Of a stretch of DNA of 64,000 nt, positions 1 through 15,764 are shown piece by piece (positions within the stretch are counted from its first letter, which is position 1; the number at the start of each line of letters is the position of its first letter). A program made the position numbers and the translations under genes. Source of the DNA: Candidatus Omnitrophota bacterium (GTDB lineage Bacteria > Omnitrophota > Gorgyraeia > Zapsychrales > Fredricksoniimonadaceae). The notes under the pieces are model-generated. The model worked only from the letters and a program-made list of their open reading frames with translations. It was not told where the DNA came from and did no database searches. Where the stretch lies: positions 2,758-66,757 of the forward strand of contig CAIVRE010000020.1 of the NCBI GenBank assembly GCA_903908245.1, given 5' to 3'.

Positions 1-228
1 GATGCTGCGCATATCGTCAATAAAACCAATGTATGCCGCGTCCAACTTGACAGGAACAATACTTTTAAACCCCGACAGGCGCCGCTCTTGATCATTAACA
101 CAACGGATCCTCCCCTCCAATTCTGATATTTTCCAGGATAACGACCGCCATTGACTCAATCCCCAAAACCCTTGGAAAAAAGCCCCAAACACGACACACA
201 CCCAAAGAATGCCCCACATCTTTTTCAT
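1..228 (-). CDS. Partial membrane-anchored protein, possible GspM/PilO-like partner. Its 3' end lies outside the window.
   Basis: Minus-strand ATG at 228..226 overlaps the TGA of the upstream gene, giving an ATGA overlap. Translation begins MKKMWGILWVCVVFGAFF, a transmembrane helix, followed by a coiled-coil-like SWKISELEGRIR. It sits in the same coupled operon as the secretin and the GspL-like gene. Confidence 0.4.
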   Translation of the reverse strand, partial: MKKMWGILWVCVVFGAFFQGFWGLSQWRSLSWKISELEGRIRCVNDQERRLSGFKSIVPVKLDAAYIGFIDDMRSI

Positions 229-1424
229 ATATTCTCTCCAAAGCCCTTCAAACCCCTATCAAGACGGCTTTTCTGATAGATAACCCTTAAAGCAGGCTGA
301 CCACCTGCAAGCTCATCAACAACTACCGCTTTCGTATAAATCCCCCGGGCATCAAAGAAACCTTCCTCACCTTTAAGAATAAAAACCGAAACCTTCTCGC
401 CGCCCTCTAACCCCGACTCCCAGATAATATTCTGCAATAACCAACCATTCGGCAAAGAATCCAAAAGACTCAAAAAAGACCCCTGCCAGCTGATCACCTT
501 CAACGAACGAAGATACTCCTGATACGTCAAAAGAGAACGCTCTTTCAAAATGGCTTCCCGAGAAACCACCATACTTTCCATACCTTTCATCCGGCTCAAA
601 GCATCCTCACGCAACGTTAACATGATCACCGAAAACAATACCGCCCCGGCTGTTACCAATAACGGCAGCGAGTATTTCAATGCACCCCGACGCCATTCTT
701 CCTGCTTTTGCTTACGCGCCTCTTCTTCAGGCGATGGAAAATGGACGGAAAAACGAGCTCTTTCCAGCACTTCAAAAACTGAAAGCACCGAGTCAACCGC
801 AACAATATCCTCGTGCCCCCGCTGTTTAATAAACGCCTCAAGGAACGCCCCATGATCAGACACCACCTTGACCGCCCCGCACGACCGCAAGCGCTCCAAC
901 AACCGCTTCTCACTGCGCCTCACTTCCTCGGCGATCCGCTCTCCATCCTGAAAAACAAGCTCGCGCGTTTCCACGATCGATAACCCGTCGATAACTGTAA
1001 CGAACACCCGCGCTCCAACATCATTCACCACAATATGTGCTGCGCCTTCCAGGACAAAGCCCGTAGAAAGCAGATACGCCCGGACCGCCAACCCGTATGG
1101 CACGCAAACCTTGATCGAACCCTTGGGAACAATATCGTAAAACCCGCGCAACATTTCTTCCCGCGCGCCCATCACCAGTCCCACTCCGCCTTTCAATCTT
1201 TCCTGACGCATAATGAACCCGCCAGGGAGCTCTGCACTAATCCCTTTATCCGCTGCTGCCGAAAACTTCACTTGCCGATATTCAATCCCTCCCAATAAAA
1301 CGGCCAACTCCTTCGTCGAGCTGAGATCTGATCCCGCAAACTCTTCCAATGACAGCCATTGCAACCCGCCCTCACCGACACAACAAATGCCTCTATCGGT
1401 TAAAATAATGACTTCCATTGTCAT
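225..1424 (-). CDS. GspL-like protein, a PilM-PilN-type fusion: a cytoplasmic actin-like domain, a single transmembrane helix and a periplasmic domain.
   Basis: 399 aa. The N-terminal ~245 aa are soluble, followed by a hydrophobic helix (LPLLVTAGAVLFSVIMLTL) and a ~130 aa C-terminal domain. The size and topology match GspL. A 4-nt start/stop overlap with the secretin gene indicates coupling. Confidence 0.5.
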   Translation of the reverse strand: MTMEVIILTDRGICCVGEGGLQWLSLEEFAGSDLSSTKELAVLLGGIEYRQVKFSAAADKGISAELPGGFIMRQERLKGGVGLVMGAREEMLRGFYDIVPKGSIKVCVPYGLAVRAYLLSTGFVLEGAAHIVVNDVGARVFVTVIDGLSIVETRELVFQDGERIAEEVRRSEKRLLERLRSCGAVKVVSDHGAFLEAFIKQRGHEDIVAVDSVLSVFEVLERARFSVHFPSPEEEARKQKQEEWRRGALKYSLPLLVTAGAVLFSVIMLTLREDALSRMKGMESMVVSREAILKERSLLTYQEYLRSLKVISWQGSFLSLLDSLPNGWLLQNIIWESGLEGGEKVSVFILKGEEGFFDARGIYTKAVVVDELAGGQPALRVIYQKSRLDRGLKGFGENI

Positions 1425-2806
1425 CCCCTCTTTGGTGTGATCAAAACTACCAGCTCAACCCTTGAATGTTTCTCCGACTCATAAGAAAATAACCTCCCCA
1501 GGAATGGAAGACGGCCAAGGACCGGGATACCAAAATGATCTTTACTGCGACTTTTTGTTATCAACCCGCCGATGACCGCAGTCTCATTCGCCTTTAACCT
1601 GACCATAGTATTCATGGACTTCATGGATGTTTCAGGCGCCTCAAGCCGGCTTCCTCCCCCAAGGGCGATCGAACGGATATCATCCACGCTGCTCACCACG
1701 GGCGTTACATTAAGGAATATTTCATCGCCGACCATATTGCCAACGATCTGCAACGTTACGCCGCCATGAACCTCCCCCAGAGAACCGCTGACGATCGTAC
1801 CCCCCGACTGGGTAGTTTCAATATTCGACGATTCAACATACGATCTTGTCGCTCCAACCTGGATATTGGCAACAGTATTATTCAGCATGGCGATCCGCGG
1901 TTGAGAAACGACCTCCACCTTTCCGTATGAATCCAGGGCACGAAGCAATACCTTGACCCCTGTCTCGGTATCCCCGGACCCCGCCTTATTAACCGAACCT
2001 GACAACGTAAATGTCCCTGCTGCGGGGAGATTCTCAGCGGCCATGGTGCTTACCCCTTTAAAGCCTTTAAGATCTCCCCGCTCCATCAATGCCGACCAGT
2101 CGATCCCCAGACGATTCTCATCCGAAAGCTCCACCTCGATCACCTTTACGTTCACCAGGATCTGCCGGCTGACACGTCGATTAAGTTCATCAATAAAACC
2201 CTCAACTGTTTCAAGGACAACCGGATTATCCGTTACCAGCATCACTCCGCCGACCCGATTTAACGACACACTGCCAGACGGAGAAAGCAAGGCTTTCACA
2301 TTACGTTCGGCATCCTCCCAATAGGAAAGTCGCTGGATGGTATTCTCAACCACCACCTTGGTCCCCACACGCACCTTGGAAGATCTCTTGTCCGATGTCC
2401 CGGAGCTATCGGTCAGGCTCTCATTGCTCGTCAAAGTATCAAGCTGCTGTTCCACTGGCGGCAAAGCCAACCGGAACACCTTGCTTTCAACCGCCAGGAT
2501 CACAAGGTCCTGTCCATTAACCTTAAAACCATACCCGTGTGAATAAAGGATCGTATTAAGGGCACGCAACACCGTTACATCCTTAAGATCAACATTAATA
2601 TCCGCTTCTTCAACGCCCTTGCCCAGAACAACCCCTTTTCCCGTCGCATCTGCTAGGCTCTTGATCGCTTCGGTTAATTTGAACGACCCGGTCATCGAGA
2701 CCTTGCGCATCAGCTCCGGCATAACAACCACCGTCTCCGCTGCCCATAATGCAGAAGCCCCCAGTAAAGACGATATCAACCATAAACATAGCCATTGTCT
2801 TTTCAT
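1421..2806 (-). CDS. Outer-membrane secretin of the GspD/PilQ family.
   Basis: 461 aa with an N-terminal signal peptide (MKRQWLCLWLISSLLGASALWA). The C-terminal secretin signature is GGLITKSRSKDHFGIPVLGRLPFLGRLF...VELVVLITPK. A 4-nt overlap with the flanking genes indicates coupling. Confidence 0.8.
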   Translation of the reverse strand: MKRQWLCLWLISSLLGASALWAAETVVVMPELMRKVSMTGSFKLTEAIKSLADATGKGVVLGKGVEEADINVDLKDVTVLRALNTILYSHGYGFKVNGQDLVILAVESKVFRLALPPVEQQLDTLTSNESLTDSSGTSDKRSSKVRVGTKVVVENTIQRLSYWEDAERNVKALLSPSGSVSLNRVGGVMLVTDNPVVLETVEGFIDELNRRVSRQILVNVKVIEVELSDENRLGIDWSALMERGDLKGFKGVSTMAAENLPAAGTFTLSGSVNKAGSGDTETGVKVLLRALDSYGKVEVVSQPRIAMLNNTVANIQVGATRSYVESSNIETTQSGGTIVSGSLGEVHGGVTLQIVGNMVGDEIFLNVTPVVSSVDDIRSIALGGGSRLEAPETSMKSMNTMVRLKANETAVIGGLITKSRSKDHFGIPVLGRLPFLGRLFSYESEKHSRVELVVLITPKRG

Positions 2807-3237
2807 TTGATCTGCCTTTCATTAGGAATAACCAAAGGTAACGCGGTAATATCGGCAGCCAAAACCTCAACATGCTCAGGATCCGGCCGAATATCAGAAC
2901 GCAAAGGAAACCCACCGGCTTTTATCCATTCACCGGGGGTAATAATAACAAGCTCATTATGTTCAGGATAAAAGGCTCCTCCCTGAACATGCGCCGGAAT
3001 ACGCACCTCCTGCACCAACGGTGCCGCCCAATTACTGCCACCTAAATAGGGGAAGCCGTTGCCGTTCATCCCATCCGCCATCCTGCCTAGATTCTCTTTG
3101 ATCCCCCGCTGGTAACCTTCGTCATATGCCACGCCGTAACGAGGCGTACCGGTCGATACGCAACCACTCAGAGCCCCGGCCATAACGACCAGGATCAATA
3201 ATATTCTAACGAACCCCATAAGGATGCTCCTTTGCAC
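2803..3237 (-). CDS. Small lipoprotein, possibly a pilotin or PilP-like secretin accessory.
   Basis: Lipobox ...VVMAGALSGC follows a hydrophobic leader. The protein is 144 aa. It overlaps the traC 3' end and the secretin 5' end. Confidence 0.5.
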   Translation of the reverse strand: MQRSILMGFVRILLILVVMAGALSGCVSTGTPRYGVAYDEGYQRGIKENLGRMADGMNGNGFPYLGGSNWAAPLVQEVRIPAHVQGGAFYPEHNELVIITPGEWIKAGGFPLRSDIRPDPEHVEVLAADITALPLVIPNERQIK

Positions 3238-5686
3238 ACTGTTTAAGCGCGGCTAACAGGTCTCCGCCCAAACGCTCACGAACAACATTAAGATATTCAT
3301 TGTTTCGCGGCTCAGTATTGGCCGCCCAGTACAAAAAAGGATCCGGTACAAGCCTTATTACACCGGACGATGACGGCGTTATCACCAATGCCTCGGAATA
3401 CTGCCCCTTGACCATATTCAAAGATCGCAAAAGGGCAGTACTCTCCTCACTAAGAGACAGCTCCCTCTTAAAACCTTCGATCAAACTGGGATCCTGTCTT
3501 AAAAATATTTTATTGGAGGTGTTTGCCAGAACAGCTCCCCCTGCTTTCTGCTGAAGAAGGTCGCCAGCCTCCTGCGTAACGGCCACCGCTGAACAACGAT
3601 ACTTCCGGAAGGTCTTGAATGCATTGGCTATAAAATCAGCTGTATTAGACATCTTGAGCAACTGCCATGCTTCATCGATAATGAGAAACTTGCGCTCCGC
3701 GACCACGGCACTCTCGGAGACAAAATTGGTAATAAAGAACATGATATTCAATAACACGACCAGCTGCAGATCAGGATAACGTGACAATTGCGCCAGCTCA
3801 AAGACCGTGAAACGCCCGCAAGACGACAGCTCATTGGGCCCATCGAAGAACTGTCCATACTGCCCATCTTTAGTGAAAGGCGTCAAGCAGAGCGCGAGCC
3901 GTTGCCCCATATCCGCAGGCAATCCCTTCGCTTCACTACAAAAAGGATCTTTAAGCACTTTAACAATATCGCTCAGAATAACCTCTCGGTCCGGGTTTTG
4001 TTCGTACGCCTTGAGAATACTGATCTGAAGCAACCCGCGTTCTTCACGCCCCAAGCGGTCGCGTTCATCGCCACCGGAAGCCATCATGGCAAGCATCTCG
4101 ACCAAGAAAGCTTGGGTTTCCGCTGTAGGTCTTCGATAGAACGGATTAATACACAACGGCTTATCCATCTCGAATGAAACGTACTGCCCGCTTAATACTT
4201 CACATGTCTTGCGATACGAATGCCCCTTGTCCAGTACAAAGAAATATGCGCCGAGACGATAATTCTGATAAATAAGATCGTTGGTCAAAAACGACTTCCC
4301 TGCTCCGGAAGCCCCAATGATCACTGCGTGCGGATTAGTATCAGAGTCGAAGAAATCAATACCTACAGTCTCTGCCCGGCGGTTAAGATACAAAGCCGCC
4401 GGCGTACGCGTACCCCGGAAAGCCCCATACCACGGCAGCAGATCACTAAAGTTATCCGCTAATAACCGACGTGTTCTGCGAACAAAATGATCATAGGCAT
4501 GATCAAAATTCAGCGGAAGGCAGCTCAAGAACAATGAAGGCGCAATAATCTCCTCTTTCAATCCCTCAGCTCCAAGACGGCTGAGGCTGGCTATGAATGC
4601 GTCCGCAGAACGATCCGCTTCATCGGCGGTCGCTGCAAACGGGATAAAATGAACCCGGCCATATACCACCGCCCTGCCGCCTTTAAATGATTCGCTGATC
4701 AAAGAACTAAGCTCTTCTTTCTTCTGGACCGCCTCTTCACTGATATCCCCCAATGAGGAAGTTCTTTGAATAAACGCAAACGCCTTCTGGAATTTAAGAC
4801 GCGCAAGCGCCTGCGATTGATCGGGAATAATAAAATTCATGACAACCAAGAATTCACGACAAACATCTAAAAGAGACGGCCCATTGCCTGAAGAACAGGT
4901 GACCATGCCTGCCCAAGTCCTCGATGGAAGCTCTTTAAGTGTAACCACACGGGTATGCCGGCCATCAAGGACAAACCCCCGTCCTTCAGCTAATGGCGCG
5001 TTATACAGGATCTGATCCCTGATAAAACGCCCCGCGGTTTTCTCTTTTTTCACCTGAAGTGAACGACGCGGATTAAGCACACGATACAAGAAATGGATCA
5101 CATCATCCGCATCCAACACTTTTAACAGCATCCCTGTTGCACGCAAGGCATTCTCGAAAGGGACAACAAGCTTCAAGAACGTTTCATGCTCTTTTTCAAA
5201 AATACCAGGGCCATAGTGACCCCCGACGACAAAATACACACGTGCGCGTCCAGGCCAGGATGGTGCTTGAAATTGAGGAAAATACCGGGCCGTGAGGAAC
5301 ACCCTTAATTCACGGGGAAAAACAGTCTTTTGCAAATGTTCAAGTTTCTCATCGATGGCTGCCCGCACGATCCCGGAGGCCTCTTTCACCCCGGCCATCC
5401 GATAATCGTCCAGGTTCGCACTGATATCCGTATCACTCCAAAGAATAACTTGAAGGCAAAGCCTGGATGAAAGGCGGCTCAGAATGCCCGCAACCTGGGA
5501 AGAAAAATCATCCAACATATCCATGGAAGCGGCCTCTGCCCCAAAGGGCTTGACTTCCCACACCCGGCCAAGGCTGCCATCGACATTCACAAAAACACCT
5601 CCCACCTCATCCGCATACGGTAAATGATCCAGCAGCGATGGCCCCTCATTAAATATCTTCTCAATATCCAAAGCCGTTAAAGCCAT
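3206..5686 (-). CDS. traC: TraC/VirB4-family conjugative type IV secretion ATPase.
   Basis: 826 aa. The Walker A region VIIGASGAGKSFLTNDLI...FVLDKGHSYRKTCEVLSGQYVSF...INPF aligns with F-plasmid TraC (SGAGKT...DMGDGYKSLCENMGGVY...FNPF). Confidence 0.8.
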   Translation of the reverse strand: MALTALDIEKIFNEGPSLLDHLPYADEVGGVFVNVDGSLGRVWEVKPFGAEAASMDMLDDFSSQVAGILSRLSSRLCLQVILWSDTDISANLDDYRMAGVKEASGIVRAAIDEKLEHLQKTVFPRELRVFLTARYFPQFQAPSWPGRARVYFVVGGHYGPGIFEKEHETFLKLVVPFENALRATGMLLKVLDADDVIHFLYRVLNPRRSLQVKKEKTAGRFIRDQILYNAPLAEGRGFVLDGRHTRVVTLKELPSRTWAGMVTCSSGNGPSLLDVCREFLVVMNFIIPDQSQALARLKFQKAFAFIQRTSSLGDISEEAVQKKEELSSLISESFKGGRAVVYGRVHFIPFAATADEADRSADAFIASLSRLGAEGLKEEIIAPSLFLSCLPLNFDHAYDHFVRRTRRLLADNFSDLLPWYGAFRGTRTPAALYLNRRAETVGIDFFDSDTNPHAVIIGASGAGKSFLTNDLIYQNYRLGAYFFVLDKGHSYRKTCEVLSGQYVSFEMDKPLCINPFYRRPTAETQAFLVEMLAMMASGGDERDRLGREERGLLQISILKAYEQNPDREVILSDIVKVLKDPFCSEAKGLPADMGQRLALCLTPFTKDGQYGQFFDGPNELSSCGRFTVFELAQLSRYPDLQLVVLLNIMFFITNFVSESAVVAERKFLIIDEAWQLLKMSNTADFIANAFKTFRKYRCSAVAVTQEAGDLLQQKAGGAVLANTSNKIFLRQDPSLIEGFKRELSLSEESTALLRSLNMVKGQYSEALVITPSSSGVIRLVPDPFLYWAANTEPRNNEYLNVVRERLGGDLLAALKQCAKEHPYGVR

Positions 5687-6042
5687 CAGCGCCCCTCTCC
5701 CTCGATGAACCAGCGCGTTCGTTCAAGCATCACGAACGACCAATGCCCGCCCACCATGATATTCTTGTCCTCTTTAACAATATGGGACGGCACCCAAACC
5801 TTGATAACTCTCGGGAGAAGGATCACCGGAAGATATGGCTTCACCACCCCGAGTGGCGCATCCAGCGAAAGAAGAGGTCTCCCTTCAGCGTCCGTCTTTT
5901 CCGCCTGCTTGGCCTGACGATAAGTCTCCGCGAACGTACGGGCCTTCTTTTCATCAGAAGCCCTCTGTCCCGACGATGAAACAGAAGCGCAGCCGCTAAT
6001 CCAAATAACGAACATTATCAGGCTTATTGCTCTTAAGGCCAT
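5686..6042 (-). CDS. traV: TraV-like outer-membrane lipoprotein of the type IV secretion core.
   Basis: 118 aa. The signal peptide carries a lipobox (IWISGCAS). It sits between the TraB-like and TraC genes, as in F-type operons. Confidence 0.5.
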   Translation of the reverse strand: MALRAISLIMFVIWISGCASVSSSGQRASDEKKARTFAETYRQAKQAEKTDAEGRPLLSLDAPLGVVKPYLPVILLPRVIKVWVPSHIVKEDKNIMVGGHWSFVMLERTRWFIEGEGR

Positions 6043-7132
6043 TGATCCGCACTCCTTCCAGAATGATCAAATATACATCCACCCCCGACTCAACCCGAAC
6101 CGCAGGAATGATGGAACTCAGTTGATCCGCATAATATTTTGATAATTGCGCCGCACTTTGAGAGAGTCCCTGAAATGCGGCATACCTGCCAACACTGCCT
6201 GTCACATTACGTGACACCCGCCCGCTCGATGACCTTACAGCCGTTGTCTCTCCATCCGCAATGGCCCCGGAAGCACCTCCCAAAAAACCGGTCATGAACG
6301 ACGATGCCATCTGCGCCCCCGTATTGCGCACAACGACCCCCCGGATCCCAAGCTCTCCGTTAATATCCGTAACATACCCGATATTACCCTGCTGTTGGAA
6401 CTCCCGGCCATCCGGCAATATCGCAGACAATGTCACTGCCTGGATGAGCGCCCGCTCACTATTAAGCTCGCCAACAGCTTTCCCGATCACAAACGCGCCC
6501 TCGAGAGGAATTCGGGCCTCATTCGGACCATAAAACGCCTCATTCAAACGAATAAGCACCGGCAACGGATTATTCTGGTCCGAAGGAGCATAAACCCCGG
6601 TCAAAAGCGTTCCGCGAACAAAACTTCCCGACGGCAAGAATACGCCCTCTTTCTCCGGTTCCGATACAGGATTAATATTAACGACTTCCAACCGATAACT
6701 TTCAACACGCCCCCCTGCCGGAGAAAGGGAAGGTTTCTCCGCAAATTTTGTTTCCAACCTCATGACGCTATCATTGATCCCTCCCTGGATCTTCAATACT
6801 TCAGCGATCTTTTTATCCAACACTTCAATCTGAACTTCCATCTGATGGCTTCTTTCCTGCGCGCCATGATATTGTTCTTCCAGTCGCCCGACAAAAGCCT
6901 TGCGGTCCACATCCTCGTCAAGAAATAACCCCGACCGTTCCATATTCGACGCCTTTGGCTTATCGATTTCCAATTCACGTTGCCTTGGACTCTCGGAGAT
7001 CTTTTCAACCTTCCTTGGCGCATGATTTGATGAAAAAACAAATAACAGGACAAAAAAAAGAGCACCCCCCACCCACAACCACATACGGCGGTCATTCATC
7101 AATAACTTGAGCCTCTCGAGTATTTCATTCAT
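5996..7132 (-). CDS. traB: TraB/VirB10-like core protein of the type IV secretion system.
   Basis: 378 aa. It has an N-terminal transmembrane segment, a charged linker and a C-terminal TrbI/VirB10-like beta domain. The operon position matches F traB. Confidence 0.6.
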   Translation of the reverse strand: MNEILERLKLLMNDRRMWLWVGGALFFVLLFVFSSNHAPRKVEKISESPRQRELEIDKPKASNMERSGLFLDEDVDRKAFVGRLEEQYHGAQERSHQMEVQIEVLDKKIAEVLKIQGGINDSVMRLETKFAEKPSLSPAGGRVESYRLEVVNINPVSEPEKEGVFLPSGSFVRGTLLTGVYAPSDQNNPLPVLIRLNEAFYGPNEARIPLEGAFVIGKAVGELNSERALIQAVTLSAILPDGREFQQQGNIGYVTDINGELGIRGVVVRNTGAQMASSFMTGFLGGASGAIADGETTAVRSSSGRVSRNVTGSVGRYAAFQGLSQSAAQLSKYYADQLSSIIPAVRVESGVDVYLIILEGVRINGLKSNKPDNVRYLD

Positions 7133-7842
7133 CGCGATGCCACCATATATAAAATGCCCTTCGATCCTGAAGTCCCTGCAGCGGTCAAAATATCTTTCTG
7201 CGACGTCACCGCCAATAAACCCGGAAAATTAAACTGTTCCACCGGTATCACCAGGGACTGCGGCAATAAATTCTCCGCCGTTAGAACATAACCGACGATT
7301 TCCGGCATTTCATACATGAACATTGTCCTGATCCGCACCCGGGCATCTTCAAAGATCACTGTTTCACGCAAGGTTTCCACCGCGCCGGATGGCGCACGCC
7401 CCGCCGCCAGTTCCCGAATAAGGTCAATGCTTGAAAGCGTGCTTGTCTCGGTAATACCTGCCTCCTTCTGGGGCTCAATGACCACTTTCTCATCAAATCC
7501 TTTATCAAAAACAAATTTAAGCCGGTACGAACGCCCGATACCGTCGATAACCACCAGCTCGGCAGGATCCCGCAACAACGGCGTAATGAATAAATGCCCC
7601 GCCACGTGTTCCACTTTTAGACTTGCCGCATCACCCGAACGGACAATATTGGAAACCCCGCCTCCAACGACGACCTCAATGGCCTTTCCCATCTCGGACC
7701 GGACTTCCACCGCCCCCTCCTGCAACACATGTTTCACCTCCTGGGCCTCGGCACACACCACTGCGCCAAAAACAAGGACAAGGACCAACGTGCATCTATT
7801 TTGTCTCAACGGACACCTCTTCTTTCCTGATATCCAACACAC
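7129..7842 (-). CDS. traK: TraK-like (VirB9/secretin-N-like) core protein of the type IV secretion system.
   Basis: 237 aa with a signal peptide. The C-terminal block AENLLPQSLVIPVEQFNFPGLLAV resembles F TraK [24 protein letters not shown]. Confidence 0.55.
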   Translation of the reverse strand: MCWISGKKRCPLRQNRCTLVLVLVFGAVVCAEAQEVKHVLQEGAVEVRSEMGKAIEVVVGGGVSNIVRSGDAASLKVEHVAGHLFITPLLRDPAELVVIDGIGRSYRLKFVFDKGFDEKVVIEPQKEAGITETSTLSSIDLIRELAAGRAPSGAVETLRETVIFEDARVRIRTMFMYEMPEIVGYVLTAENLLPQSLVIPVEQFNFPGLLAVTSQKDILTAAGTSGSKGILYMVASR

Positions 7843-8434
7843 TTAAAGCATATGGATTATCCCCGGTTGATGCCGACCTCAATAACACGACCACAAAACA
7901 TACAGGTTCAACCGACATTTCTTCTTTCCCCATATAGATCCCGCGTTTCCCCTCCATCGCAACCTTAAAAACACCTTTGTCTTCTTCAACCCGCGGCTCA
8001 GCTGTCAACATAAACACACTGGATAATCGATCCCGGCGGATCTTCTCAATCTCATCAGCAGCCCGCGCATGCACCCGGGATAGCAAGCCCGGAGCCATGG
8101 ACTTTGACGAACGCGTATAAACACCCTCGATCGTGTCCGGCGTATAATTCATCCATCCCGTCAACCACATAACAGCAAAACTGCGTACCGAAACCAACGG
8201 GACATTATCCGGATAAGACATGCCGGAAGACACCGCACCGGGAATGTAATACACCGCCTTTGGACGAGTCACAGAATAGGCGAATGCTATCAGCACAACA
8301 ACCAATAGCCCCGACAATAAATATACGCCCCTGCGCATCTGAATGTTTTCATTCTCCGCACGCGCATAACGTTCAAAAAAAATAGTGCTTTTGGACCTCA
8401 GCGGCTTATCCGCATTAACACGTTCATCACCCAT
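7796..8434 (-). CDS. traE: TraE-like (VirB8-like) bitopic inner-membrane protein.
   Basis: 212 aa with a single N-terminal transmembrane helix. It lies between the TraL-like and TraK-like genes, as in F. Confidence 0.5.
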   Translation of the reverse strand: MGDERVNADKPLRSKSTIFFERYARAENENIQMRRGVYLLSGLLVVVLIAFAYSVTRPKAVYYIPGAVSSGMSYPDNVPLVSVRSFAVMWLTGWMNYTPDTIEGVYTRSSKSMAPGLLSRVHARAADEIEKIRRDRLSSVFMLTAEPRVEEDKGVFKVAMEGKRGIYMGKEEMSVEPVCFVVVLLRSASTGDNPYALSVLDIRKEEVSVETK

Positions 8435-8781
8435 TAATAAACCTCTTCCCTGCCATATACCGCATACCGGCCTTCTCCCGGAGGAAGAAGCCCATCGAAT
8501 GGAATGCCCGAACGATATAAAAGATGGACCATAAACCCTTCCGGCCTCCCGCGCTTAAGCGCGGCTAACAAAGGCCAACTAATAAAAAACAAAATAAGCG
8601 GAACCGTTGGCGTTAATATGACGGCAGGAATACCAAAAAGCAGCATAAGCACCGCCACATCCTCCCCCTCAAGCCCAAGAATTAATAATGGCCGATCGAT
8701 CGTCCGCGGGCAATTACGCATAATTAAAATATGTTCAAAAAATTGGGTAAAAATACCAGCGCCAGCAATGCCAGAACACAC
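8434..8781 (-). CDS. traL: TraL-like (VirB3-like) protein. The likely start is the internal Met near 8721.
   Basis: ALKRGRPEGFMVHLLY matches F TraL KLKKGRGSSWLRDLIY. It has two hydrophobic segments and lies directly downstream of the pilin. Confidence 0.6.
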   Translation of the reverse strand: MCSGIAGAGIFTQFFEHILIMRNCPRTIDRPLLILGLEGEDVAVLMLLFGIPAVILTPTVPLILFFISWPLLAALKRGRPEGFMVHLLYRSGIPFDGLLPPGEGRYAVYGREEVY

Positions 8782-9014
8782 CCCACGGCAGCCCCATAAT
8801 CCTTATGGACGATCTTCCAGATCGCTACGATCAGAAAGATCAAGGCCAAAACCTTGGATGCTGGCCCGGTCATCACCTTTACCATAAAACCAGCCAGATT
8901 ATTGAACTCTTCACTGGCCTTGTCCTCTGCTCCAGACGTTTGAGCCCACACCGCTGAGTACGACGATAAACCCGCCCATAAGAAACACAACAGCCATAAT
9001 TTGATCTTTTTCAT
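8724..9014 (-). CDS. TraA/VirB2-type conjugative (pro)pilin.
   Basis: The start MKKIKLW at 9014 overlaps the TGA of the upstream gene (ATGA). There is a ~24 aa signal peptide, followed by a ~70 aa mature protein with two hydrophobic helices. It is the first type IV secretion gene before the TraL-like gene. Confidence 0.55.
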   Translation of the reverse strand: MKKIKLWLLCFLWAGLSSYSAVWAQTSGAEDKASEEFNNLAGFMVKVMTGPASKVLALIFLIVAIWKIVHKDYGAAVGCVLALLALVFLPNFLNIF

Positions 9015-10237
9015 ACAGCTCCCTTTCTTTTGAACATCATCAGAGGCAACAACAATACAGCCATCGCCAACAATCCCACAACACCTACCAGAGGCATATC
9101 CCACAAAAAGACTTTTCCCCCGTATAAAATATTATTAACATCAAACACCAGCGAGGAGACACGATCGATGATCGCCCAAAACAACGGGATCAATTTCAAA
9201 ACAAAAAGATATTTCAAGAAAACCCACAACAAAGAAATATCAGAACTAAAGAACACAAATACCAGAAAAAATGGGAATGCCGCCCATACACTCCAAAGGC
9301 ACGCTCCATACAGGACCGGAAAGACCGACAGCCAGACACGGCTCATCTGGTCCACCATAGCGCCCGCTCTGACATTTAAAGTCATGCTGCGGGCCTGAGC
9401 GGTCTCCTTCTGCCCCGAAAAACTCATGGCCGTATATGCCCATGAAGCATGGGCGGCATCCGCCTCTATTAACGCACGCACTGCCGCGTCTTTTAAGGAA
9501 CTGCCGTCATAATAATCGCGTGAAACCCTTTCAAATAACTCATCCTTGTTGATGAACGTATAAATAGCATCTTCCAACACCCTCCAATCGGATGCAGCCT
9601 GAGACGTATATAACGGAAGAATTTCCTCAGAACCTGGCCATAATGACTGTCCAACCAAAGGATCTTTTTCATTGAGCGTACGCAAGGCCTGAAAATAATG
9701 ATCCTGATAGAAATTAACCAGTTTCTCTTTTAACAACTGATCATTAAGACCCGCCATCAATCGATCCCGTGTCAACAACCAAAACTTAGACGTAGAAAAA
9801 GGCTCTTTCAGGAAACTTGCATTATGACCACGCGCCCGATCAACCACCGAGATCATGCCATTAGTGAAAGCGGACATTCCTTCTGCGAGAAACACTACTA
9901 CGGGACTTGCCAAAAGTTGATCGATCCCGGCCTTCCTTAATATGTCATCAGTCCTGATTTGAACGTACCCGCCCCCTTCCATACCAGAAAGCGGCAGTCT
10001 TAGGGGCGTCCTCGGCATGATCAGCAGAAACAAAAAGGAAAAGAATATCGAACAAAAGAATATGACTGAGGAAAAATTTGCATTCTTCAAAGAACGCGAC
10101 ATAGAAAAAAGAAAACCGGAAACAAAAATAACCTTTCCTGCCAATGTCTCAATAAAAATATACCTCATCAAGGCTGAAGATTGATGAAGCCCAATCAATT
10201 CGAATGCGTTGTCAATTGGTGTTATTCCACAAGTCAT
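9011..10237 (-). CDS. Polytopic membrane protein, first gene of the operon. A VirB6/TraG-N-like role is possible.
   Basis: 408 aa. Transmembrane helices sit at both ends and flank a ~250 aa soluble domain. It is translationally coupled to the pilin gene. Confidence 0.4.
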   Translation of the reverse strand: MTCGITPIDNAFELIGLHQSSALMRYIFIETLAGKVIFVSGFLFSMSRSLKNANFSSVIFFCSIFFSFLFLLIMPRTPLRLPLSGMEGGGYVQIRTDDILRKAGIDQLLASPVVVFLAEGMSAFTNGMISVVDRARGHNASFLKEPFSTSKFWLLTRDRLMAGLNDQLLKEKLVNFYQDHYFQALRTLNEKDPLVGQSLWPGSEEILPLYTSQAASDWRVLEDAIYTFINKDELFERVSRDYYDGSSLKDAAVRALIEADAAHASWAYTAMSFSGQKETAQARSMTLNVRAGAMVDQMSRVWLSVFPVLYGACLWSVWAAFPFFLVFVFFSSDISLLWVFLKYLFVLKLIPLFWAIIDRVSSLVFDVNNILYGGKVFLWDMPLVGVVGLLAMAVLLLPLMMFKRKGAV

Positions 10238-10349
10238 GATTTCCTATCAAATCTTAATTGATTAAACATCAATAGATATACGACAAGAAGCCAAAAAATA
10301 CAAGAACTATTTTTATCTTTCATCAAATTATTTGATTTATTAACAACTA
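10238..10349 (-). promoter_or_regulatory. AT-rich upstream region, the probable promoter of the type IV secretion/secretin operon.
   Basis: This is the only sizeable non-coding gap, about 110 nt and AT-rich, before the 10-kb run of overlapping minus-strand genes. Confidence 0.35.
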
Positions 10350-11645
10350 CTACGAAGTATGCGACGAGGATCGAAGAATTTGCTCACGCAACAAAACGAA
10401 CTCACCGGGGTCTTGAGGAAAAGGAATATAACAAAAATGCAGTCCGCCATGGATCGCGCTCACCGAATGGCCTTTATCATCAAATAACTCTTTTACTTCA
10501 AGCGCAACATTCCTGTCGGGAAGGCAGAGCTCATACGCCTGCCCGCATTTGATCGGATTGCGCGGCTCGACCTTGAGCATTTTCTTGATCTGGTCATACC
10601 CCCTCACAATACCGGTAAAACGATACCCGCTGTACGCTGAATTGCTGTTGGAATACTCAACAGCGCCGGGGCCAGGATCACCGTGCAGGAACCCTTCGGT
10701 AAACCCACGCGCAGAGGTCGCAAAAATATCGCTCATATGCTCTTCATTGAACGGCTGGCCCTTAACAAGATCATCGATCGCCCGGCGATACGCCCGTGTG
10801 ACCATGGCTATATAATAAACCGTCTTGGAACGCCCTTCCACCTTGAACGCACCAATCCCCGCCGCCTGAAGCTCCCCCAGGCACCTGATCGCGCACAGGT
10901 CTTTGGCATTCATCAGGTACGCTCCATGCTCATCCTCCTCGATGGGAAAAAGCATCCCCTTGCGCTCCGACTCCTCCAGGTAAAACTCATCCTTGAGCGG
11001 CACATAATCGTCGCCATGCTTTGTCTTGGCCACCTTATACTGCCAGCGGCAGGAATTGGTGCAAACACCCTGGTTGGAATCGCGATGGGTCAAATAATTG
11101 GAAATAAGGCAGCGCCCGGAATAGGCGATACACACCGCGCCGTGCACGAACGACTCAAGCTCAAGCCCGGGGCAGGCATCGCGAATGACTTTCATTTCAG
11201 CTATCGATATTTCACGGGAAAGGATGATCCGGCTCGCGCCAATGTTCTGCCAGAATTTAGCCGACGCATAGTTGATCACATTAGACTGGACCGAAATATG
11301 AATTGCTTCCGACGGGAAATGCTCACGCATCAGCATGATGAGCCCCGGGTCCGCCATGATCCAGGCATCGGGCTTGCAGGCCGAACAGATATCTTTCACC
11401 AAACGGATAAAACCAGGGACCTTGCTGTTATGGGAAAGAATATTGGCCGTAACATAAACCTTCCGGCCCAGGCGATGCGCGTAAGCCACCGCTTCCGCGA
11501 CTTGCGCAACGTCCTTAAACCCGTTCTCCCTCGCGCGCAGTGAAAAACGCGGGATCCCCAGATACACCGCATCCGCGCCGAACGCGAAAGCATAGCGCAT
11601 CTTTTCCATGTCACCGGCGGGGATCAAAAGCTCGGGGATGCGCAC
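10350..11645 (-). CDS. Peptidase of the U32 family (collagenase-like).
   Basis: 431 aa. It carries U32 motifs: E...GADAVY, and a cysteine-rich CxxxC..C region (GVCTNSCRW). Confidence 0.75.
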   Translation of the reverse strand: MRIPELLIPAGDMEKMRYAFAFGADAVYLGIPRFSLRARENGFKDVAQVAEAVAYAHRLGRKVYVTANILSHNSKVPGFIRLVKDICSACKPDAWIMADPGLIMLMREHFPSEAIHISVQSNVINYASAKFWQNIGASRIILSREISIAEMKVIRDACPGLELESFVHGAVCIAYSGRCLISNYLTHRDSNQGVCTNSCRWQYKVAKTKHGDDYVPLKDEFYLEESERKGMLFPIEEDEHGAYLMNAKDLCAIRCLGELQAAGIGAFKVEGRSKTVYYIAMVTRAYRRAIDDLVKGQPFNEEHMSDIFATSARGFTEGFLHGDPGPGAVEYSNSNSAYSGYRFTGIVRGYDQIKKMLKVEPRNPIKCGQAYELCLPDRNVALEVKELFDDKGHSVSAIHGGLHFCYIPFPQDPGEFVLLREQILRSSSHTS

Positions 11646-11648
11646 AGA

Positions 11649-13592
11649 TCAATCGCCCTTGAACTGCTTGAGAGCCTCCGCCTGAAACCCGGGAGGCATA
11701 TGGTCGAAACGGGTAAAAACACTCATGCTGCTTTTCATGGTCCTGATAAAAGGCGTTCCGTTAACAACGCGAATGCCTTCTTCTTTCTTGGTATCATAAA
11801 CCAGCATACACGGGTCAAATGCCCCTCGGGGAAGCGGCGCGCTGGCTGATGGATTGTCCACCTTGACATGCTCTATCCGTAAATTCCTGACCCCTGCTTC
11901 TTTTATAAAGACCCACATCGGATATTCCCAGGAATCCCCCGTCAAGACCAGTCCGATATCCTTGCACTGGTATTGCGTCACTTGCTGGCTCAAAGCCACG
12001 TATACCGGATACACCGCCGACCAATGGTTGAAATACTGCTGTTCCCTTGAAACATTGAAAATATTCTTCTGTGCGATCAAAGGCCGCACGGAATTGCCGA
12101 ATACCCATGGCAATGCCGCAACCAGTAAAAAGCCCGATACAACGACCGCCGCCTTGCGGCTGACGGCATTCTCAAGGACCAGCGCCGCCCATGGAGCCAG
12201 CAACACAAAGACCGGTAAATGATAACGGCAACTGAATGGAGACCACTGGACCATCACAACAAACAAAACAAATCCCGCTATAACCGCCAATGCATATTCT
12301 TTGGCAACGGACGGAACCTTGCGCGCATACCGCCAGGCCAAAACCCCGGCGATCAAATACAACAGCAAGTGGGCTGCGTTACCCGCCACATCCTCATTAA
12401 GAGGAGAATGCAGGTCAAACGGGGCCGCCTCCCCCATCAAGGCCCGCGCATCATTGCTCTGGCCGATACCCCCAAGGATCCCGTTCACGCCTGATGAAAC
12501 AAACCTGTTCGCGCCATCCCATGGCGTCGAAAGCTGCATACCCGCGCTCCGCACCATATTCCCCAGTGTTCGTCCACCCAGGTCGCTCCAGGAAAGGACA
12601 TGGGCTGATTCAGACGGAGGAATGATCGTCCGGGTCAACGACAGATTACGGGTGTAATAAAACACATTCAACCCCAGCGCCAACAAAAGAATACCTGCCG
12701 CCAACAAGATACCCTTTAGAGCTCCATTTTTCCTGGCGATCATCACAGCAAACCATCCCAACAGCACCAGGCCGTAAAAATATGGGGTCCCCTTTACAAA
12801 GAACGCCAGTCCAAGAGCCACACTAGCGGAAAACAAGAAAAACCGACGGCCCGTGCGGACAAAGAGCAATCCGGAAACAACGAACGCAATAAGTCCCAGC
12901 GCTGCCAGATAATCATTCTGCGTGCTGTTAGACTGAAGGATCCCCATCGGGATCGCTGCCGCTATGGCCACAGACATCACCTGCCCCAACCGCCCTGCTC
13001 CCAAAAGCTGGGCGATCAAAGAAACCCCTGCCAGGCTCAACACCATCGCGCCCCATTGCACCACAGGCGCCCAGCGGTCCCCCCCGGACAGGATCTGAAA
13101 ATGCAGGATACAATAAGACCCGAACGCAGGCAAATTCAACTGTTTGATCATGGATGTCGGATAGTTTGCCACCGTTCCGTCCTGGATCCAATGCATGACC
13201 CTCGCCATATGCGTCGTCATCGAATCCCATGTGTTGGGAGGCGCGACCACAGCAATTAAAAAACTTGCCGCAACGATCCCTGCTGCCCCCCATAACAACC
13301 CCGTTTCAAAACGGTCAAAAGAAACCGCCCCAAAAGACCGGACATCTTTCTTACTGCCACGATACCTGATCCACGATCCCAATCCGGCGCACACCGATAA
13401 CCACCAAACAAACACCGGCCAGAAACTCAACCCCTGGAACATACTTAACAATTCTGTCGCGCATAACAATAAGCCGCCCCACAGGACAGCGCCCAAGAGG
13501 ACAGCCGTACGGCGCATACCGGCCTCCGCCGGCAAAAACTGCCAGCAAAAGAACATGCAGAGGAGCAATGCAACAATAAGGATCCCTGTCAT
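11649..13592 (-). CDS. Membrane glycosyltransferase with a GT-C fold, ArnT/PMT (GT39)-like.
   Basis: 647 aa. About 12 transmembrane helices are followed by a C-terminal soluble domain, the typical architecture of PMT_2 family proteins. Confidence 0.45.
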   Translation of the reverse strand: MTGILIVALLLCMFFCWQFLPAEAGMRRTAVLLGAVLWGGLLLCATELLSMFQGLSFWPVFVWWLSVCAGLGSWIRYRGSKKDVRSFGAVSFDRFETGLLWGAAGIVAASFLIAVVAPPNTWDSMTTHMARVMHWIQDGTVANYPTSMIKQLNLPAFGSYCILHFQILSGGDRWAPVVQWGAMVLSLAGVSLIAQLLGAGRLGQVMSVAIAAAIPMGILQSNSTQNDYLAALGLIAFVVSGLLFVRTGRRFFLFSASVALGLAFFVKGTPYFYGLVLLGWFAVMIARKNGALKGILLAAGILLLALGLNVFYYTRNLSLTRTIIPPSESAHVLSWSDLGGRTLGNMVRSAGMQLSTPWDGANRFVSSGVNGILGGIGQSNDARALMGEAAPFDLHSPLNEDVAGNAAHLLLYLIAGVLAWRYARKVPSVAKEYALAVIAGFVLFVVMVQWSPFSCRYHLPVFVLLAPWAALVLENAVSRKAAVVVSGFLLVAALPWVFGNSVRPLIAQKNIFNVSREQQYFNHWSAVYPVYVALSQQVTQYQCKDIGLVLTGDSWEYPMWVFIKEAGVRNLRIEHVKVDNPSASAPLPRGAFDPCMLVYDTKKEEGIRVVNGTPFIRTMKSSMSVFTRFDHMPPGFQAEALKQFKGD

Positions 13593-13621
13593 AACCTCAA
13601 TCTTTCCTGTTGTAAGTCATC

Positions 13622-14479
13622 TCAACCCAATGACGGCGAAAACCCGTCGAGCGAATCCAGGGTGAACTCAATGCCTGCCGTATCCGTATGCCGCCGGGCC
13701 AGGCCAGCCGGCGGAACAACAACCAGCCTGATCATATACACGCTGCTGGATCCATAATACAGGCGGAATGTTGAACCGGGATGAAAAACAGGGCTTCTTA
13801 AAACCTTTTGCAATTTAGGAAAAAGGCGCTGCAACAGATACTTGACCCGGCCCTGGGCCGCAATATCACGCAATAATATTTCATCGACCAGTATCTCCTC
13901 CCCCAGCCAGCCCTTCCTGAAATCTCCCTCGCCCTGGACAATGACCTTTACACTGATCTCGCCGGCAAAAGACAGGGGGGTCTTTTCGATCAAACGCCCC
14001 ATCAACTGGCCTGTCATATCCCAGGCCTTCACCATATCAAGGAATTCTCCCGCCTGTTGAACAGCCCCCTCTCCCTCCAATACCGGGAACCACTGCAACC
14101 ACGCCGCGCTGATCCTAGCCCAGATATCCCCCAAAGACGGATCCACTCCGACGGCTCTGTGCATTATATTGCTGACCTCGACCCGCGCGTCATAGGGGAT
14201 CTCTTTAATAAAGCGGGCCTCAAGGGCCGAAGAGGGGTCTTTCGGGTGACGATGCCATACATAGAGCATGGTGCCATCACTCCTGATGATCATCCCGCTG
14301 GAAGCGCCAGGCTTCTGCAAAGGCACAACCAGCCCGTCGTCAACGATCACCTCGACCGGATCAATGCCATGGTCCATTGCCGAAGGAAGGCTCATGGTGA
14401 CCGCGTGATGGCTAAGCCGACGGGGAAATCTCCCCTCATCGACAAACCCGAACTCCTGCAACCGGCCTTGAGGGATCAT
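13622..14479 (-). CDS. Hypothetical protein.
   Basis: 285 aa ORF. A 4-nt overlap with the upstream cysteine-rich small ORF indicates coupling. No recognisable motif. Confidence 0.35.
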   Translation of the reverse strand: MIPQGRLQEFGFVDEGRFPRRLSHHAVTMSLPSAMDHGIDPVEVIVDDGLVVPLQKPGASSGMIIRSDGTMLYVWHRHPKDPSSALEARFIKEIPYDARVEVSNIMHRAVGVDPSLGDIWARISAAWLQWFPVLEGEGAVQQAGEFLDMVKAWDMTGQLMGRLIEKTPLSFAGEISVKVIVQGEGDFRKGWLGEEILVDEILLRDIAAQGRVKYLLQRLFPKLQKVLRSPVFHPGSTFRLYYGSSSVYMIRLVVVPPAGLARRHTDTAGIEFTLDSLDGFSPSLG

Positions 14480-14694
14480 CCTTTTACCGACTCCATGAAT
14501 TTGGCTTTGCTGCGGTCAAACGTTTTCTCTGCATCCCGCGGGAAAAAACACCCCGGGATCGCCCCTTTGGCACGGTGGTAAGTCACACATTCACAACAGA
14601 CCCCTTTGCGTGAACATCCCGGATATGTGCATGTGCAATCTTTTAAATTATGCTCTTTCAGGCATTCCATATTCCCCTCACATATCCAGGCCAA
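14476..14694 (-). CDS. Small cysteine-rich protein.
   Basis: 72 aa carrying CxC...C...CCxC...C motifs (DCTCTYPGCSRKGVCCECVTYH), probably metal-binding. Confidence 0.45.
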   Translation of the reverse strand: MAWICEGNMECLKEHNLKDCTCTYPGCSRKGVCCECVTYHRAKGAIPGCFFPRDAEKTFDRSKAKFMESVKG

Positions 14695-14700
14695 GGATTA

Positions 14701-14734
14701 AAACAAAAGCCCCGCTGTCAAAACACGGGGCTTT
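14701..14734 (-). terminator. Rho-independent terminator downstream of fba.
   Basis: GCCCCG(ctgtcaaaaca)CGGGGC hairpin flanked by A- and T-runs. Confidence 0.6.
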
Positions 14735-14753
14735 TGATCATTTCAACCACATC

Positions 14754-15764
14754 TTATACCCTGCCGGCAGAACCAAGAACTTTCTCGTTCTTCTGCTTGT
14801 AAACCGAGACCAACGCGTCACGCGCGGGGCCGAGGTATTTGCGCGGGTCAAATTCCGCGGGAGCTTCCGCAAAAACCTTACGGATGACCGCTGTCATCGC
14901 GAGGCGACCGTCGGAATCGATATTGATCTTGCACACCGCCGACTTGGCCGCGCGGCGCAGCTGCTCTTCAGGGATCCCAACCGCCGCCTGCAGCTTACCG
15001 CCGAATTTATTGATCATCTGCACATATTCCGGCATGACCGAGCTCGACCCGTGCAGGACGATGGGAAAACCGGGGATACGCTTCTCGATCTCTTCAAGGA
15101 TATCAAAACGCAGCGGCGGCGGGACCAGCACACCCGTTTTGGGATCAAGCGTGCACTGGGAAGGCTTGAACTTATAGGCGCCATGCGATGTGCCGATCGA
15201 AATAGCCAGCGAATCAACGCCGGTCTTCTTTACAAAATCCTCAACCTGGTCCGGATGCGTATACACCGACGCCGCGGCCACCACATCATCCTCGATCCCG
15301 GCCAGAACACCCAGCTCGGCTTCCACCGTAACATCATGTTTGTGGGCGAACTCTACCACCTGCTTGGCGAGTTCGACATTCTTCTCGTAGGGATAGTGGG
15401 AACCATCGATCATAACCGACGAGAATCCGGACTCAATACACTGCTTGGCTAATTCAAAAGTGTCTCCATGGTCCAGATGCAGAGCGATCGGGATCTCTTT
15501 AAGATTCTTGGCCTTGGCCATCTCTTTCATCATCTCGACCGCACCTTTGGCCATCCAGGTCAAAAGCGTGGCATTGGCATATTTACGCGCACCCGAAGAA
15601 ACCTGCAGGATCACCGGTGACTGCGTCTCAACGCAGGCCGTAATGACCGCCTGGATCTGCTCCATATTGTTGAAATTATACGCGGGAATGGCATAGCCAC
15701 CCTTGAACGCCTTCTGGAACATTTCTTTTGTATTTGAAAGACCAAGCTCCTTGTACGAAACCAT
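14754..15764 (-). CDS. fba: Fructose-bisphosphate aldolase, class II.
   Basis: 336 aa. Full-length similarity to class II FBA, including the LHLDHG zinc site. Confidence 0.9.
   Translation of the reverse strand: MVSYKELGLSNTKEMFQKAFKGGYAIPAYNFNNMEQIQAVITACVETQSPVILQVSSGARKYANATLLTWMAKGAVEMMKEMAKAKNLKEIPIALHLDHGDTFELAKQCIESGFSSVMIDGSHYPYEKNVELAKQVVEFAHKHDVTVEAELGVLAGIEDDVVAAASVYTHPDQVEDFVKKTGVDSLAISIGTSHGAYKFKPSQCTLDPKTGVLVPPPLRFDILEEIEKRIPGFPIVLHGSSSVMPEYVQMINKFGGKLQAAVGIPEEQLRRAAKSAVCKINIDSDGRLAMTAVIRKVFAEAPAEFDPRKYLGPARDALVSVYKQKNEKVLGSAGRV

Follow-up and report, generated by a model that had tools for sequence, protein, structure and literature searches.

A sequence-orphan GspL/PilMN-like protein family tied to a composite type IV secretion and type IVb pilus operon in Omnitrophota

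The 64,000-nucleotide stretch of a Candidatus Omnitrophota genome analysed here (assembly GCA_903908245.1, contig CAIVRE010000020.1, positions 2,758 to 66,757; hereafter the window) begins inside a conjugation-type operon, where a gene at 225..1424 on the minus strand lies between a secretin gene and a small gene cut by the window end. Its product is, in our view, likely to be a GspL-type protein of the inner membrane, with PilM-PilN-like parts in a single chain, that belongs to the alignment complex (assembly platform) of a secretin. The module it is part of comes from a composite locus that combines genes of a type IV secretion system (T4SS) with those of a type IVb pilus (T4bP). The protein belongs to a new, sequence-orphan GspL/PilMN-like family (85 representatives at 50% identity) that is tied to this T4SS-T4bP composite operon and includes lineages keeping only the secretin platform. 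By analogy it would work like GspL and like PilM together with PilN, and by sequence it appears to stand outside every curated family. The gene, the parts of its product and the adjoining partner gene are as follows.

225..1424, minus strand: the target, a GspL-like (fused PilM-PilN-like) bitopic inner-membrane protein, from the open reading frame (ORF), homologues, AlphaFold model and Foldseek
741..1418, minus strand: predicted cytoplasmic actin-like domain, residues 3-228, built from two RNase-H-like beta-beta-beta-alpha-beta-alpha units (model secondary structure, Foldseek)
612..668, minus strand: transmembrane helix, residues 253-271, behind a conserved F-x-(L/S)-P-E-E motif and a basic linker (229-250) (hydropathy)
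495..608, minus strand: predicted periplasmic coiled-coil stalk, residues 273-310, continuous with the transmembrane helix (AlphaFold model)
270..494, minus strand: predicted periplasmic alpha-beta-beta-alpha-beta-beta domain, residues 311-385, PilN/peri-GspL-like (model and alignments to the A5 family, HofN and GspL)
1..228, minus strand: bitopic partner, N-terminal 76 aa, PilO/GspM-like by topology; its start forms an ATGA overlap with the target and the window end cuts it

A Kyte-Doolittle scan with a 19-residue frame finds a single hydrophobic segment in the target, at residues 253-271 (score 2.32), and nothing else above 1.6. The K/R-rich stretch EEARKQKQEEWRR precedes this transmembrane helix, so the N-terminus should lie inside, with about 250 cytoplasmic and about 127 periplasmic residues on either side of the membrane. 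AlphaFold given a 6-sequence alignment modelled only the N-domain well, and the periplasmic domain was unreliable (predicted local distance difference test, pLDDT, <55); with a 66-sequence alignment the pLDDT is 91.9 over the whole chain. In the latter model residues 3-222 form two beta-beta-beta-alpha-beta-alpha units, residues 232-307 form one helix made up of the transmembrane span plus the coil, and the periplasmic elements follow in the order H313-323, E329-337, E343-350, H361-365, E367-373 and E376-385 (H, helix; E, strand) at a pLDDT of 84-95. This order corresponds to the two alpha-beta-beta units from which the periplasmic domains of PilN, PilO, peri-GspL and GspM are built.

Foldseek searches of the PDB place the cytoplasmic domain among actin-like proteins. 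The actin-like protein BT_3980 (3hrg) matches at 2.3e-9 with probability 1.00 and Pseudomonas aeruginosa PilM (5eou) at 9.7e-9, and the structures 5eou, 5eox, 5eoy, 3jc8_Ma and 2ych have E values of 1e-8 to 1e-5, also with probability 1.00. When ranked by target-normalised TM-score, the cytoplasmic domains of EpsL/GspL/PulL top the list (1w97, 0.61; 4pht_X, which is GspL in its complex with GspE, 0.59; 1yf5, 0.56; 5tkw, 0.48; all with probability 1.00); the PilM structures score 0.35-0.44, lower than GspL because PilM is larger. Thermus thermophilus PilM-PilN (2ych) is also in the list, then FtsA, and ParM, MreB and Ppx come lower. The model thus has both the reduced actin-like fold of cyto-EpsL and the PilM-type actin-like fold. 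On inspection of the family alignment, the N-terminal phosphate-1 DxG motif is not conserved, and a D-D-x-G...T segment at residues 134-143 is retained, with T143 nearly invariant.

Profile alignments support a PilN-type origin for the membrane-proximal half of the target, and the signal is not decisive because transmembrane and coil sequence adds to the scores. A related metagenome-assembled genome (MAG) has a second locus that encodes a secretin, then a 382-aa protein with a Pfam PilN domain, then a PilO-like protein. A5, the PF05137-bearing fused PilMN family built from that 382-aa protein, aligns by HHalign with the target family over target residues 230-337 (probability 88.8, E 2.5e-6), a region that spans the (L/S)-P-E-E motif, the basic linker, the transmembrane helix, the coil, and the first periplasmic helix and strand. 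Escherichia coli HofN, a PilN, scores 12.6 bits with the target-family hidden Markov model, and weak single-sequence HHalign matches to HofN, E. coli GspL and the PilN protein of locus L002 all fall at the start of the periplasmic domain; the HHalign comparison of the target with E. coli GspL gives P=0.07. HHalign of a 6-sequence profile against a single PilN-type protein had given no match, and deeper profiles on both sides were needed. The initial annotation had proposed GspL topology (a cytoplasmic domain, one transmembrane helix, a periplasmic domain) and a GspL/PilM-PilN type of fold. The hydropathy scan agrees with the topology, structure prediction recovers an actin-like fold whose best matches are cyto-EpsL/GspL, PilM and PilM-PilN, and model, Foldseek, hydropathy and A5 alignment together support this reading.

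The L002 contig itself carries a second secretin about 6 kb downstream of its shorter version of the operon, at 17608-21132, in the order secretin, PF05137 fused PilM-N-like protein, 173-aa PilO-like protein and 995-aa protein. The stretch separating its two secretin loci contains a serine recombinase and a PemK toxin.

The target ORF is a real gene, with 85 representatives in a profile search and intact orthologues in at least five divergent genomes. A word-indexed search returned six close relatives, and those with names all come from Candidatus Omnitrophica MAGs. The profile search, against 1.84 billion representatives, yielded 85 at E <= 1e-3 (17 of them below 1e-30), counted as representatives clustered at 50% identity, and every one with a taxon name belongs to Omnitrophota. 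One close locus, L006, carries the NCBI label Ca. Elulimicrobium, and a related-locus search with the close-relative alignment found only close Omnitrophota relatives.

As an ORF the target has 399 codons, and the TGA of the secretin gene (1423-1421) overlaps its ATG at 1424. Translation more probably starts at the second ATG (1418, M3) because the orthologue starts all align there and a GAGGGG Shine-Dalgarno at 1430-1425, 6 nt upstream, is placed for it. The true coding sequence is then probably 225..1418 (397 aa), which puts a 2-nt gap after the secretin stop, as in L001, in place of an ATGA overlap. Target and secretin are tightly coupled with either start codon. At its other end, the target stop overlaps the start of the next gene (228) in an ATGA; this ORF leaves the window after 76 visible aa. 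Reading frames overlap or abut all along from TraC to the partner, and the translational coupling that the initial annotation proposed on both sides of the target is borne out, upstream probably with the 2-nt gap. A scan for promoters and terminators gave counts no higher than those of shuffled sequence, and hence was uninformative.

Full-length orthologues of the partner are 156-164 aa long and have an N-terminal transmembrane helix, a coil and an alpha/beta domain. In loci with a separate partner, it is the gene next after the target. In six family members the target continues at its C-terminus into the periplasmic domain of the partner (E 6.5e-24 to 2.9e-8), without a second transmembrane helix. 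These 509-543 aa proteins (P0012, P0015, P0023, P0028, P0030 and P0036; the first at L007 536-2101, P0015 at L015 1905-3536 and P0036 at L019 10001-11542) are single-chain PilM-PilN-PilO-like proteins, and in two of the fusion loci, L015 and L019, the separate partner gene is missing. Because of these Rosetta-stone fusions, we infer that the periplasmic domains of target and partner work together, like those of PilN-PilO and GspL-GspM. In L008, a distant locus, about 600 bp (11221-11834) without a credible ORF follow the target where the partner gene would be expected.

The module is best understood from the operon around it. Going upstream from the target to the first gene of the operon, the window encodes the following.

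1421..2806, minus strand: secretin, 461 aa (PF00263, 8.3e-33; best NCBIfam models MshL, then type IVB PilN)
2803..3237, minus strand: lipoprotein, 144 aa, with an LSGC lipobox; no Pfam or NCBIfam match, TraV-like paralogue by HHalign
3206..5686, minus strand: TraC, a VirB4-family ATPase (TIGR02746, 2.7e-115; PF11130, PF19044)
5686..6042, minus strand: TraV-like lipoprotein (weak PF09676; the L008 and L016 orthologues also match TraV weakly)
5996..7132, minus strand: TraB/VirB10-like protein (PF03743, 3.9e-21; NF010289)
7129..7842, minus strand: TraK-like protein (weak TraK_C and TraK_N matches, conserved position)
7796..8434, minus strand: TraE (PF05309, 2.4e-8)
8434..8781, minus strand: TraL-like (VirB3-like) small membrane protein (the L001 orthologue matches PF07178 TraL)
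8724..9104, minus strand: candidate TrbC/VirB2-type pilin, probably 96 aa from the ATG at 9014 (PF04956 through orthologues, weak in L001 and recorded in L008)
9011..10237, minus strand: polytopic membrane protein, TraG_N/VirB6-like (the L016 orthologue matches PF07916 TraG_N weakly)

The lipoprotein at 2803..3237 aligns with the TraV-like family by HHalign (probability 94.9, E 4.5e-8), and it shares with the TraV-like lipoprotein the C-terminal motif V..V.IPAHV..G..H.ELVII.PGEW. It is a paralogue of that protein, and the secretin side thus appears to have a T4SS-type (TraV) lipoprotein of its own, derived by duplication.

All 11 loci with a visible upstream side (the window, L001, L002, L005, L006, L008, L013, L016, L019, L020 and L021) show the gene order TraC, (lipoprotein), secretin, target, and ten of these have the lipoprotein between TraC and the secretin. 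Some members with this order share only 18-25% identity with the target. In L021 (7555-9141) there is no separate lipoprotein gene, and a longer secretin (528 aa) starts 30 nt after TraC.

Composite loci, in which pilus genes follow the partner, are found in L016, L019, L020, L013, L015 and the P0026 contig. Their pilus genes encode a PilP-like lipoprotein with weak TIGR03021 and T2SSB matches, a GspE/PilB-type ATPase bearing a MshEN c-di-GMP-binding domain (12179-13810 in L016), a GspF-type platform protein, and prepilins of N_methyl, bundlin-like (in L019) and Collar-domain types. TraU comes after the pilins except in L013 and L015, whose pilus genes give way to the contig end or to unrelated genes, and further genes stand after TraU, with TraF on the P0026 contig. 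Relatives with a visible downstream side thus nest a full type IVb-like pilus gene set between traC and traU (L016 11712-19449; L019 11532-18204; L020 11719-17405). In L020 the genes directly before TraC are unrelated, and the pilus module is thus flanked by TraC and TraU with no TraL-to-TraV stretch ahead of it.

The window's clade (with L001, L002, L005 and L006) has a reduced locus. There only about 15 nt separate the partner from the gene that stands behind traU in the composites; the locus contains no PilP-like gene, MshE/GspE ATPase, GspF, prepilins or traU, and keeps the lipoprotein, secretin, target and partner. A second, distant clade (P0090/L008 and P0075/L022) also has no motor near the target. 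A rough neighbour-joining tree places the reduced loci in two separate clades and composite loci on both sides of the root, which suggests that the composite locus is ancestral and was reduced at least twice. The protein of about 1000 aa after the L001 operon was considered as a conserved member and rejected, as L005 has an unrelated B12/radical-SAM enzyme at that place.

The initial annotation had taken the presence of a GspL-like protein to imply an assembly platform serving an F-like system. This is not established, for the relatives nest the module in a complete type IVb-like pilus set, and the presence of the module alone therefore does not imply a type IV pilus (T4P)-type platform for a T4SS. 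A platform serving an F-like system is plausible but unproven, and use by the T4SS is a live possibility only in the window's clade and the second distant clade, where motor and pilin genes are absent from the locus.

The target is intact and length-conserved in the five loci of the window's clade (the window, L001, L002, L005 and L006). Its dN is 0.40-0.68 and its dS is saturated, so its apparent dN/dS of 0.14-0.33, against values of 0.04-0.14 in TraC, secretin and TraB, is a rough indication only. Lipoprotein, secretin, target and partner all appear to be under purifying selection in this clade. Identity to L001 is 52% for the target and 39% for the partner, against 72-83% for the other operon genes except the TraG_N-like gene (51%); the secretin is as conserved as TraC. 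The N-domain is the best-conserved part of the target, which argues that the cytoplasmic domain still has a constrained job. The ratio of N-domain to C-domain identity is 1.2 in the window's clade and so falls within the 1.13-1.43 spanned by five other family clades, three or more of them with composite loci.

Several observations weigh against a GspL/PilMN-type alignment component. The PilN-family HHalign match lies partly in transmembrane and coiled-coil sequence, which can inflate scores, and the PilN/peri-GspL-like fold of the modelled periplasmic domain is read from the order of its secondary-structure elements. There is no membership at the sequence level. The target has no match in Pfam or NCBIfam at E<=1, the T2SSL (PF05134) and GspL_C (PF12693) models included; none of 66 aligned family members matches T2SSL, GspL_C, PilM (PF11104), PilN (PF05137) or PAP_PilO (PF06864) at E<=0.01; and the family profile consensus matches neither T2SSL nor GspL_C at E<=10, nor any other relevant Pfam family. 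Sequence and profile searches of the PDB with the target family returned nothing relevant, and the only sequence-search matches, such as FAM155A and LMBR1, are transmembrane and coiled-coil noise. The evolutionary rate of target and partner is about three times that of TraC or the secretin. The window locus has no PilP-like adaptor, the component that normally bridges PilN/PilO to the secretin. Finally, the partner family gives no signal against E. coli HofO, E. coli GspM or the L002 PilO-like protein. The initial annotation described a bitopic, GspM/PilO-like partner. The partner is bitopic and is fused to the target in six relatives; its GspM/PilO identity is plausible from topology, position and fusions.

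We still favour the GspL-type alignment component, for which the following arrangement can be proposed. The N-terminal approximately 225 residues would be a reduced actin-like cytoplasmic domain that docks a hexameric ATPase, as the actin-like domains of GspL and PilM dock their hexameric motor ATPases. The one transmembrane helix would continue into a periplasmic coiled coil, and the periplasmic domains of target and partner would heterodimerise on coiled-coil stalks in the manner of PilN-PilO and GspL-GspM. The pair would connect, directly or through the lipoprotein, to the secretin encoded upstream. The simplest candidate for the docked ATPase in the composite relatives is the MshE/GspE-type enzyme encoded in the same set; in the window's clade it would be either TraC or a PilB-type motor encoded elsewhere. 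We regard a PilB-type motor acting in trans and co-option by the T4SS, with TraC the obvious candidate, as about equally likely.

Under the first of these alternatives the module is an ordinary T4P alignment complex encoded by a pilMNOQ-like operon, whose PilB-type ATPase, PilC-type platform and pilins act in trans, and its place among tra genes reflects co-regulation only. This is a serious possibility, though one we hold at less than even odds. The thin pilus of R64 and the type IVb pilus of PAPI-1 are parallels for a contact pilus co-regulated with a T4SS, and pilMNOPQ of type IVa pilus (T4aP) systems normally lies apart from pilBCD, as this explanation would have it. The composite relatives have a complete T4P gene set around the module, and a related MAG has another secretin-PilMN-PilO locus. 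A prepilin peptidase (A24) gene stands alone in the window at 15796..16608 on the minus strand, between aldolase and shikimate dehydrogenase genes; isolated among housekeeping genes, it indicates that type IV filament genes are scattered in this genome. On the other hand, no T2SSE or T2SSF was found among the scanned window ORFs of at least 150 aa (all but four, of 150-305 aa). The cognate block is cleanly gone, and the PilP-like adaptor and traU with it, leaving partner, 15 nt and the post-traU gene, and such loss occurred in two separate clades. Moreover, the contacts of GspL and PilM with their ATPases are usually cognate, which sits poorly with a motor borrowed from another locus.

The second alternative is a hybrid machine in which, after loss of the motor, the secretin and the PilMN/PilO-like platform serve the T4SS: the actin-like domain would dock TraC or another inner-membrane Tra protein, and the secretin would provide or supplement an outer-membrane conduit for the VirB2-type pilus or for substrate. 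We hold this, too, at less than even odds, about as likely as the first alternative. TraC stands immediately upstream of the lipoprotein/secretin/target block in every one of the 11 visible loci, even L020 with no TraL to TraV upstream, and each frame from TraC through to the partner abuts or overlaps the next. The lipoprotein that accompanies the secretin is paralogous to TraV, a T4SS protein, the module was kept in two independent reduced lineages, and conservation of the cytoplasmic domain is not relaxed after loss of the cognate ATPase. All of this support is gene order and conservation, however; no precedent was found in the literature searched, and the operon retains its own outer-membrane core set of TraV, TraK and TraB. 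The fullest form of the idea is that a VirB4-powered T4SS core captured the secretin and the GspL/PilMN-PilO-type platform from the nested type IVb pilus, plus a duplicated TraV lipoprotein, to make one chimeric trans-envelope machine with the actin-like domain on TraC and the secretin as outer-membrane gate; this too we hold at less than even odds. Secretin-based machines (type II and type III secretion systems, T4P and filamentous phage) are regarded as belonging to a different architectural lineage from VirB4-based T4SSs, and the target may link two machines that are normally separate.

A third explanation, that the module is a relic of a deleted pilus system with no current function, could account for the loss of the PilP-like adaptor, motor and pilins and for target and partner being, the TraG_N-like gene excepted, the fastest-evolving genes of the operon. 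We judge it improbable: the ORFs of the window, L001, L002, L005 and L006 are intact and length-conserved across saturated synonymous divergence, which makes a pure relic unlikely, the dN/dS values are well below 1 and the secretin has kept pace with TraC, while PilN, PilO, GspL and GspM are fast-evolving in functional systems as well. The idea that the target is some other actin-like protein, an FtsA-, MreB- or ParM-like cytoskeletal or segregation ATPase anchored in the membrane by chance, draws on the presence of such structures in the Foldseek list and is very improbable indeed, since they rank below PilM and GspL with lower target-normalised TM-scores, the domain has just the approximately 225 aa of cyto-GspL, the phosphate-1 DxG motif is not conserved, and the bitopic topology, PilN-like half, secretin adjacency and T4P sets in relatives all point to GspL/PilMN.

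Among known proteins the target most resembles GspL (EpsL/PulL). It is bitopic with its N-terminus inside, similar in length to E. coli GspL (387 aa), has a reduced actin-like domain of about 225 aa with its highest TM-scores to 1w97, 1yf5, 4pht_X and 5tkw, and carries an alpha/beta periplasmic domain after a coiled coil; a gene for a small bitopic partner comes next, in the order of gspL-gspM. Unlike GspL, it matches neither T2SSL/GspL_C nor an NCBIfam GspL model, and its gene follows a secretin rather than pseudopilins and is embedded in a tra operon. The window locus also lacks GspE, GspF and pseudopilin genes, whereas relatives have T2SSE, T2SSF and prepilins. With PilM/PilN of the T4aP (and PilO, PilP and PilQ), it shares top fold matches to the PilM structures 5eou, 2ych and 3jc8, a pre-transmembrane motif, transmembrane helix, coil and first alpha-beta segment that align to the PF05137 PilN family and HofN, a partner of PilO-like topology and, in composite relatives, a PilP-like lipoprotein. 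It differs in being one polypeptide instead of two, with an actin-like domain of about 225 aa against about 350 aa for PilM, a phosphate-1 motif that is not conserved, no Pfam PilM or PilN match and a secretin-first gene order.

At the level of whole systems, the nearest analogues are conjugative elements that combine a type IVb pilus with a T4SS, such as the R64 thin pilus pilL-V genes and the PAPI-1/SPI-7 pil clusters; bitopic proteins of type IVb clusters include R64 PilO and PilP, BfpC and TcpR. Here, too, a T4P is encoded along with a T4SS, and the composites L015, L016, L019 and L020 are ordered lipoprotein, secretin, approximately 400-aa bitopic protein, approximately 160-aa bitopic protein, ATPase, platform and prepilins, of which the window has the first four genes only. 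The second-best NCBIfam model for the secretin is type IVB PilN, and L019 has a bundlin-like pilin. Unlike in these systems, the pilus genes are nested inside the tra operon, from traC to traU, and do not form a separate operon, no relaxase or coupling protein was seen in any locus examined, the window's visible upstream flank consists of housekeeping genes, and the window's clade has neither motor nor pilins at the locus. None of the 66 members matches PAP_PilO (PF06864), the R64 PilO family, at E<=0.01.

The neighbours of the target resemble T4SSs of mating pair formation types F and G (MPF-F and MPF-G), with TraG_N-like, VirB2-type pilin, TraL, TraE, TraK, TraB, TraV and TraC proteins, and TraU and TraF in relatives. 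The TraB and TraU proteins match weakly the families TIGR03752 and TIGR03756 of the integrative and conjugative element (ICE) type of MPF-G. Only these neighbours are Tra proteins, however; the target and the 66 members match no Tra/Trb/Vir family in Pfam or NCBIfam. No TraW, TraN, TraH or TraD was detected, and the window's clade also lacks TraU.

In the literature searched, which includes the main Omnitrophota survey and a 2025 T4SS review, neither the arrangement of T4SS, secretin and PilM nor an Omnitrophota T4SS is described, and no paper was found there that reports a secretin or PilM/N/O-like proteins as parts of a T4SS. The family always lies directly behind traC, the TraV-like lipoprotein and the secretin, and it outlives motor loss in two lineages, making it a natural experiment on the exchange of modules between envelope machines. 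Omnitrophota are ultra-small, probably host-dependent bacteria (PMC10066038), and their contact apparatus is of interest; the main survey does not take up T4SS genes in its main text. Even the conservative reading yields a new family, PilM-N-O triple fusions and a composite T4SS and T4bP operon type, none of which turned up in the literature searched.

Beyond the operon, the window contains genes for a U32 peptidase, aldolase, prepilin peptidase, AroE, LeuA, IlvC, PFK, AhcY, MetK, ribosomal proteins, Suf proteins and other housekeeping functions. L001 and L005 have this U32 peptidase beside the operon as well, so on its visible side the locus looks chromosomal and syntenic. Relaxase and coupling protein, like T2SSE and T2SSF, are absent from the window ORFs scanned as above. 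Between the U32 peptidase and aldolase genes, 11649..14479 (minus strand) holds ORFs of 647 aa and 285 aa with no Pfam match. Nearly all long ORFs of 1..64000 lie on the minus strand and every 2-kb bin has a negative GC skew (between -0.05 and -0.33, with the strongest value at 1-2000), so the window would lie on one replichore with its genes co-oriented. At 49583..54478 (minus strand) a large serine recombinase (Resolvase/Recombinase/Zn_ribbon) adjoins a protein with an NrS-1-type primase-polymerase helix-bundle domain. This region may be a small integrated element, and GC content dips to about 0.445 at 54000-58000, just past the two genes.

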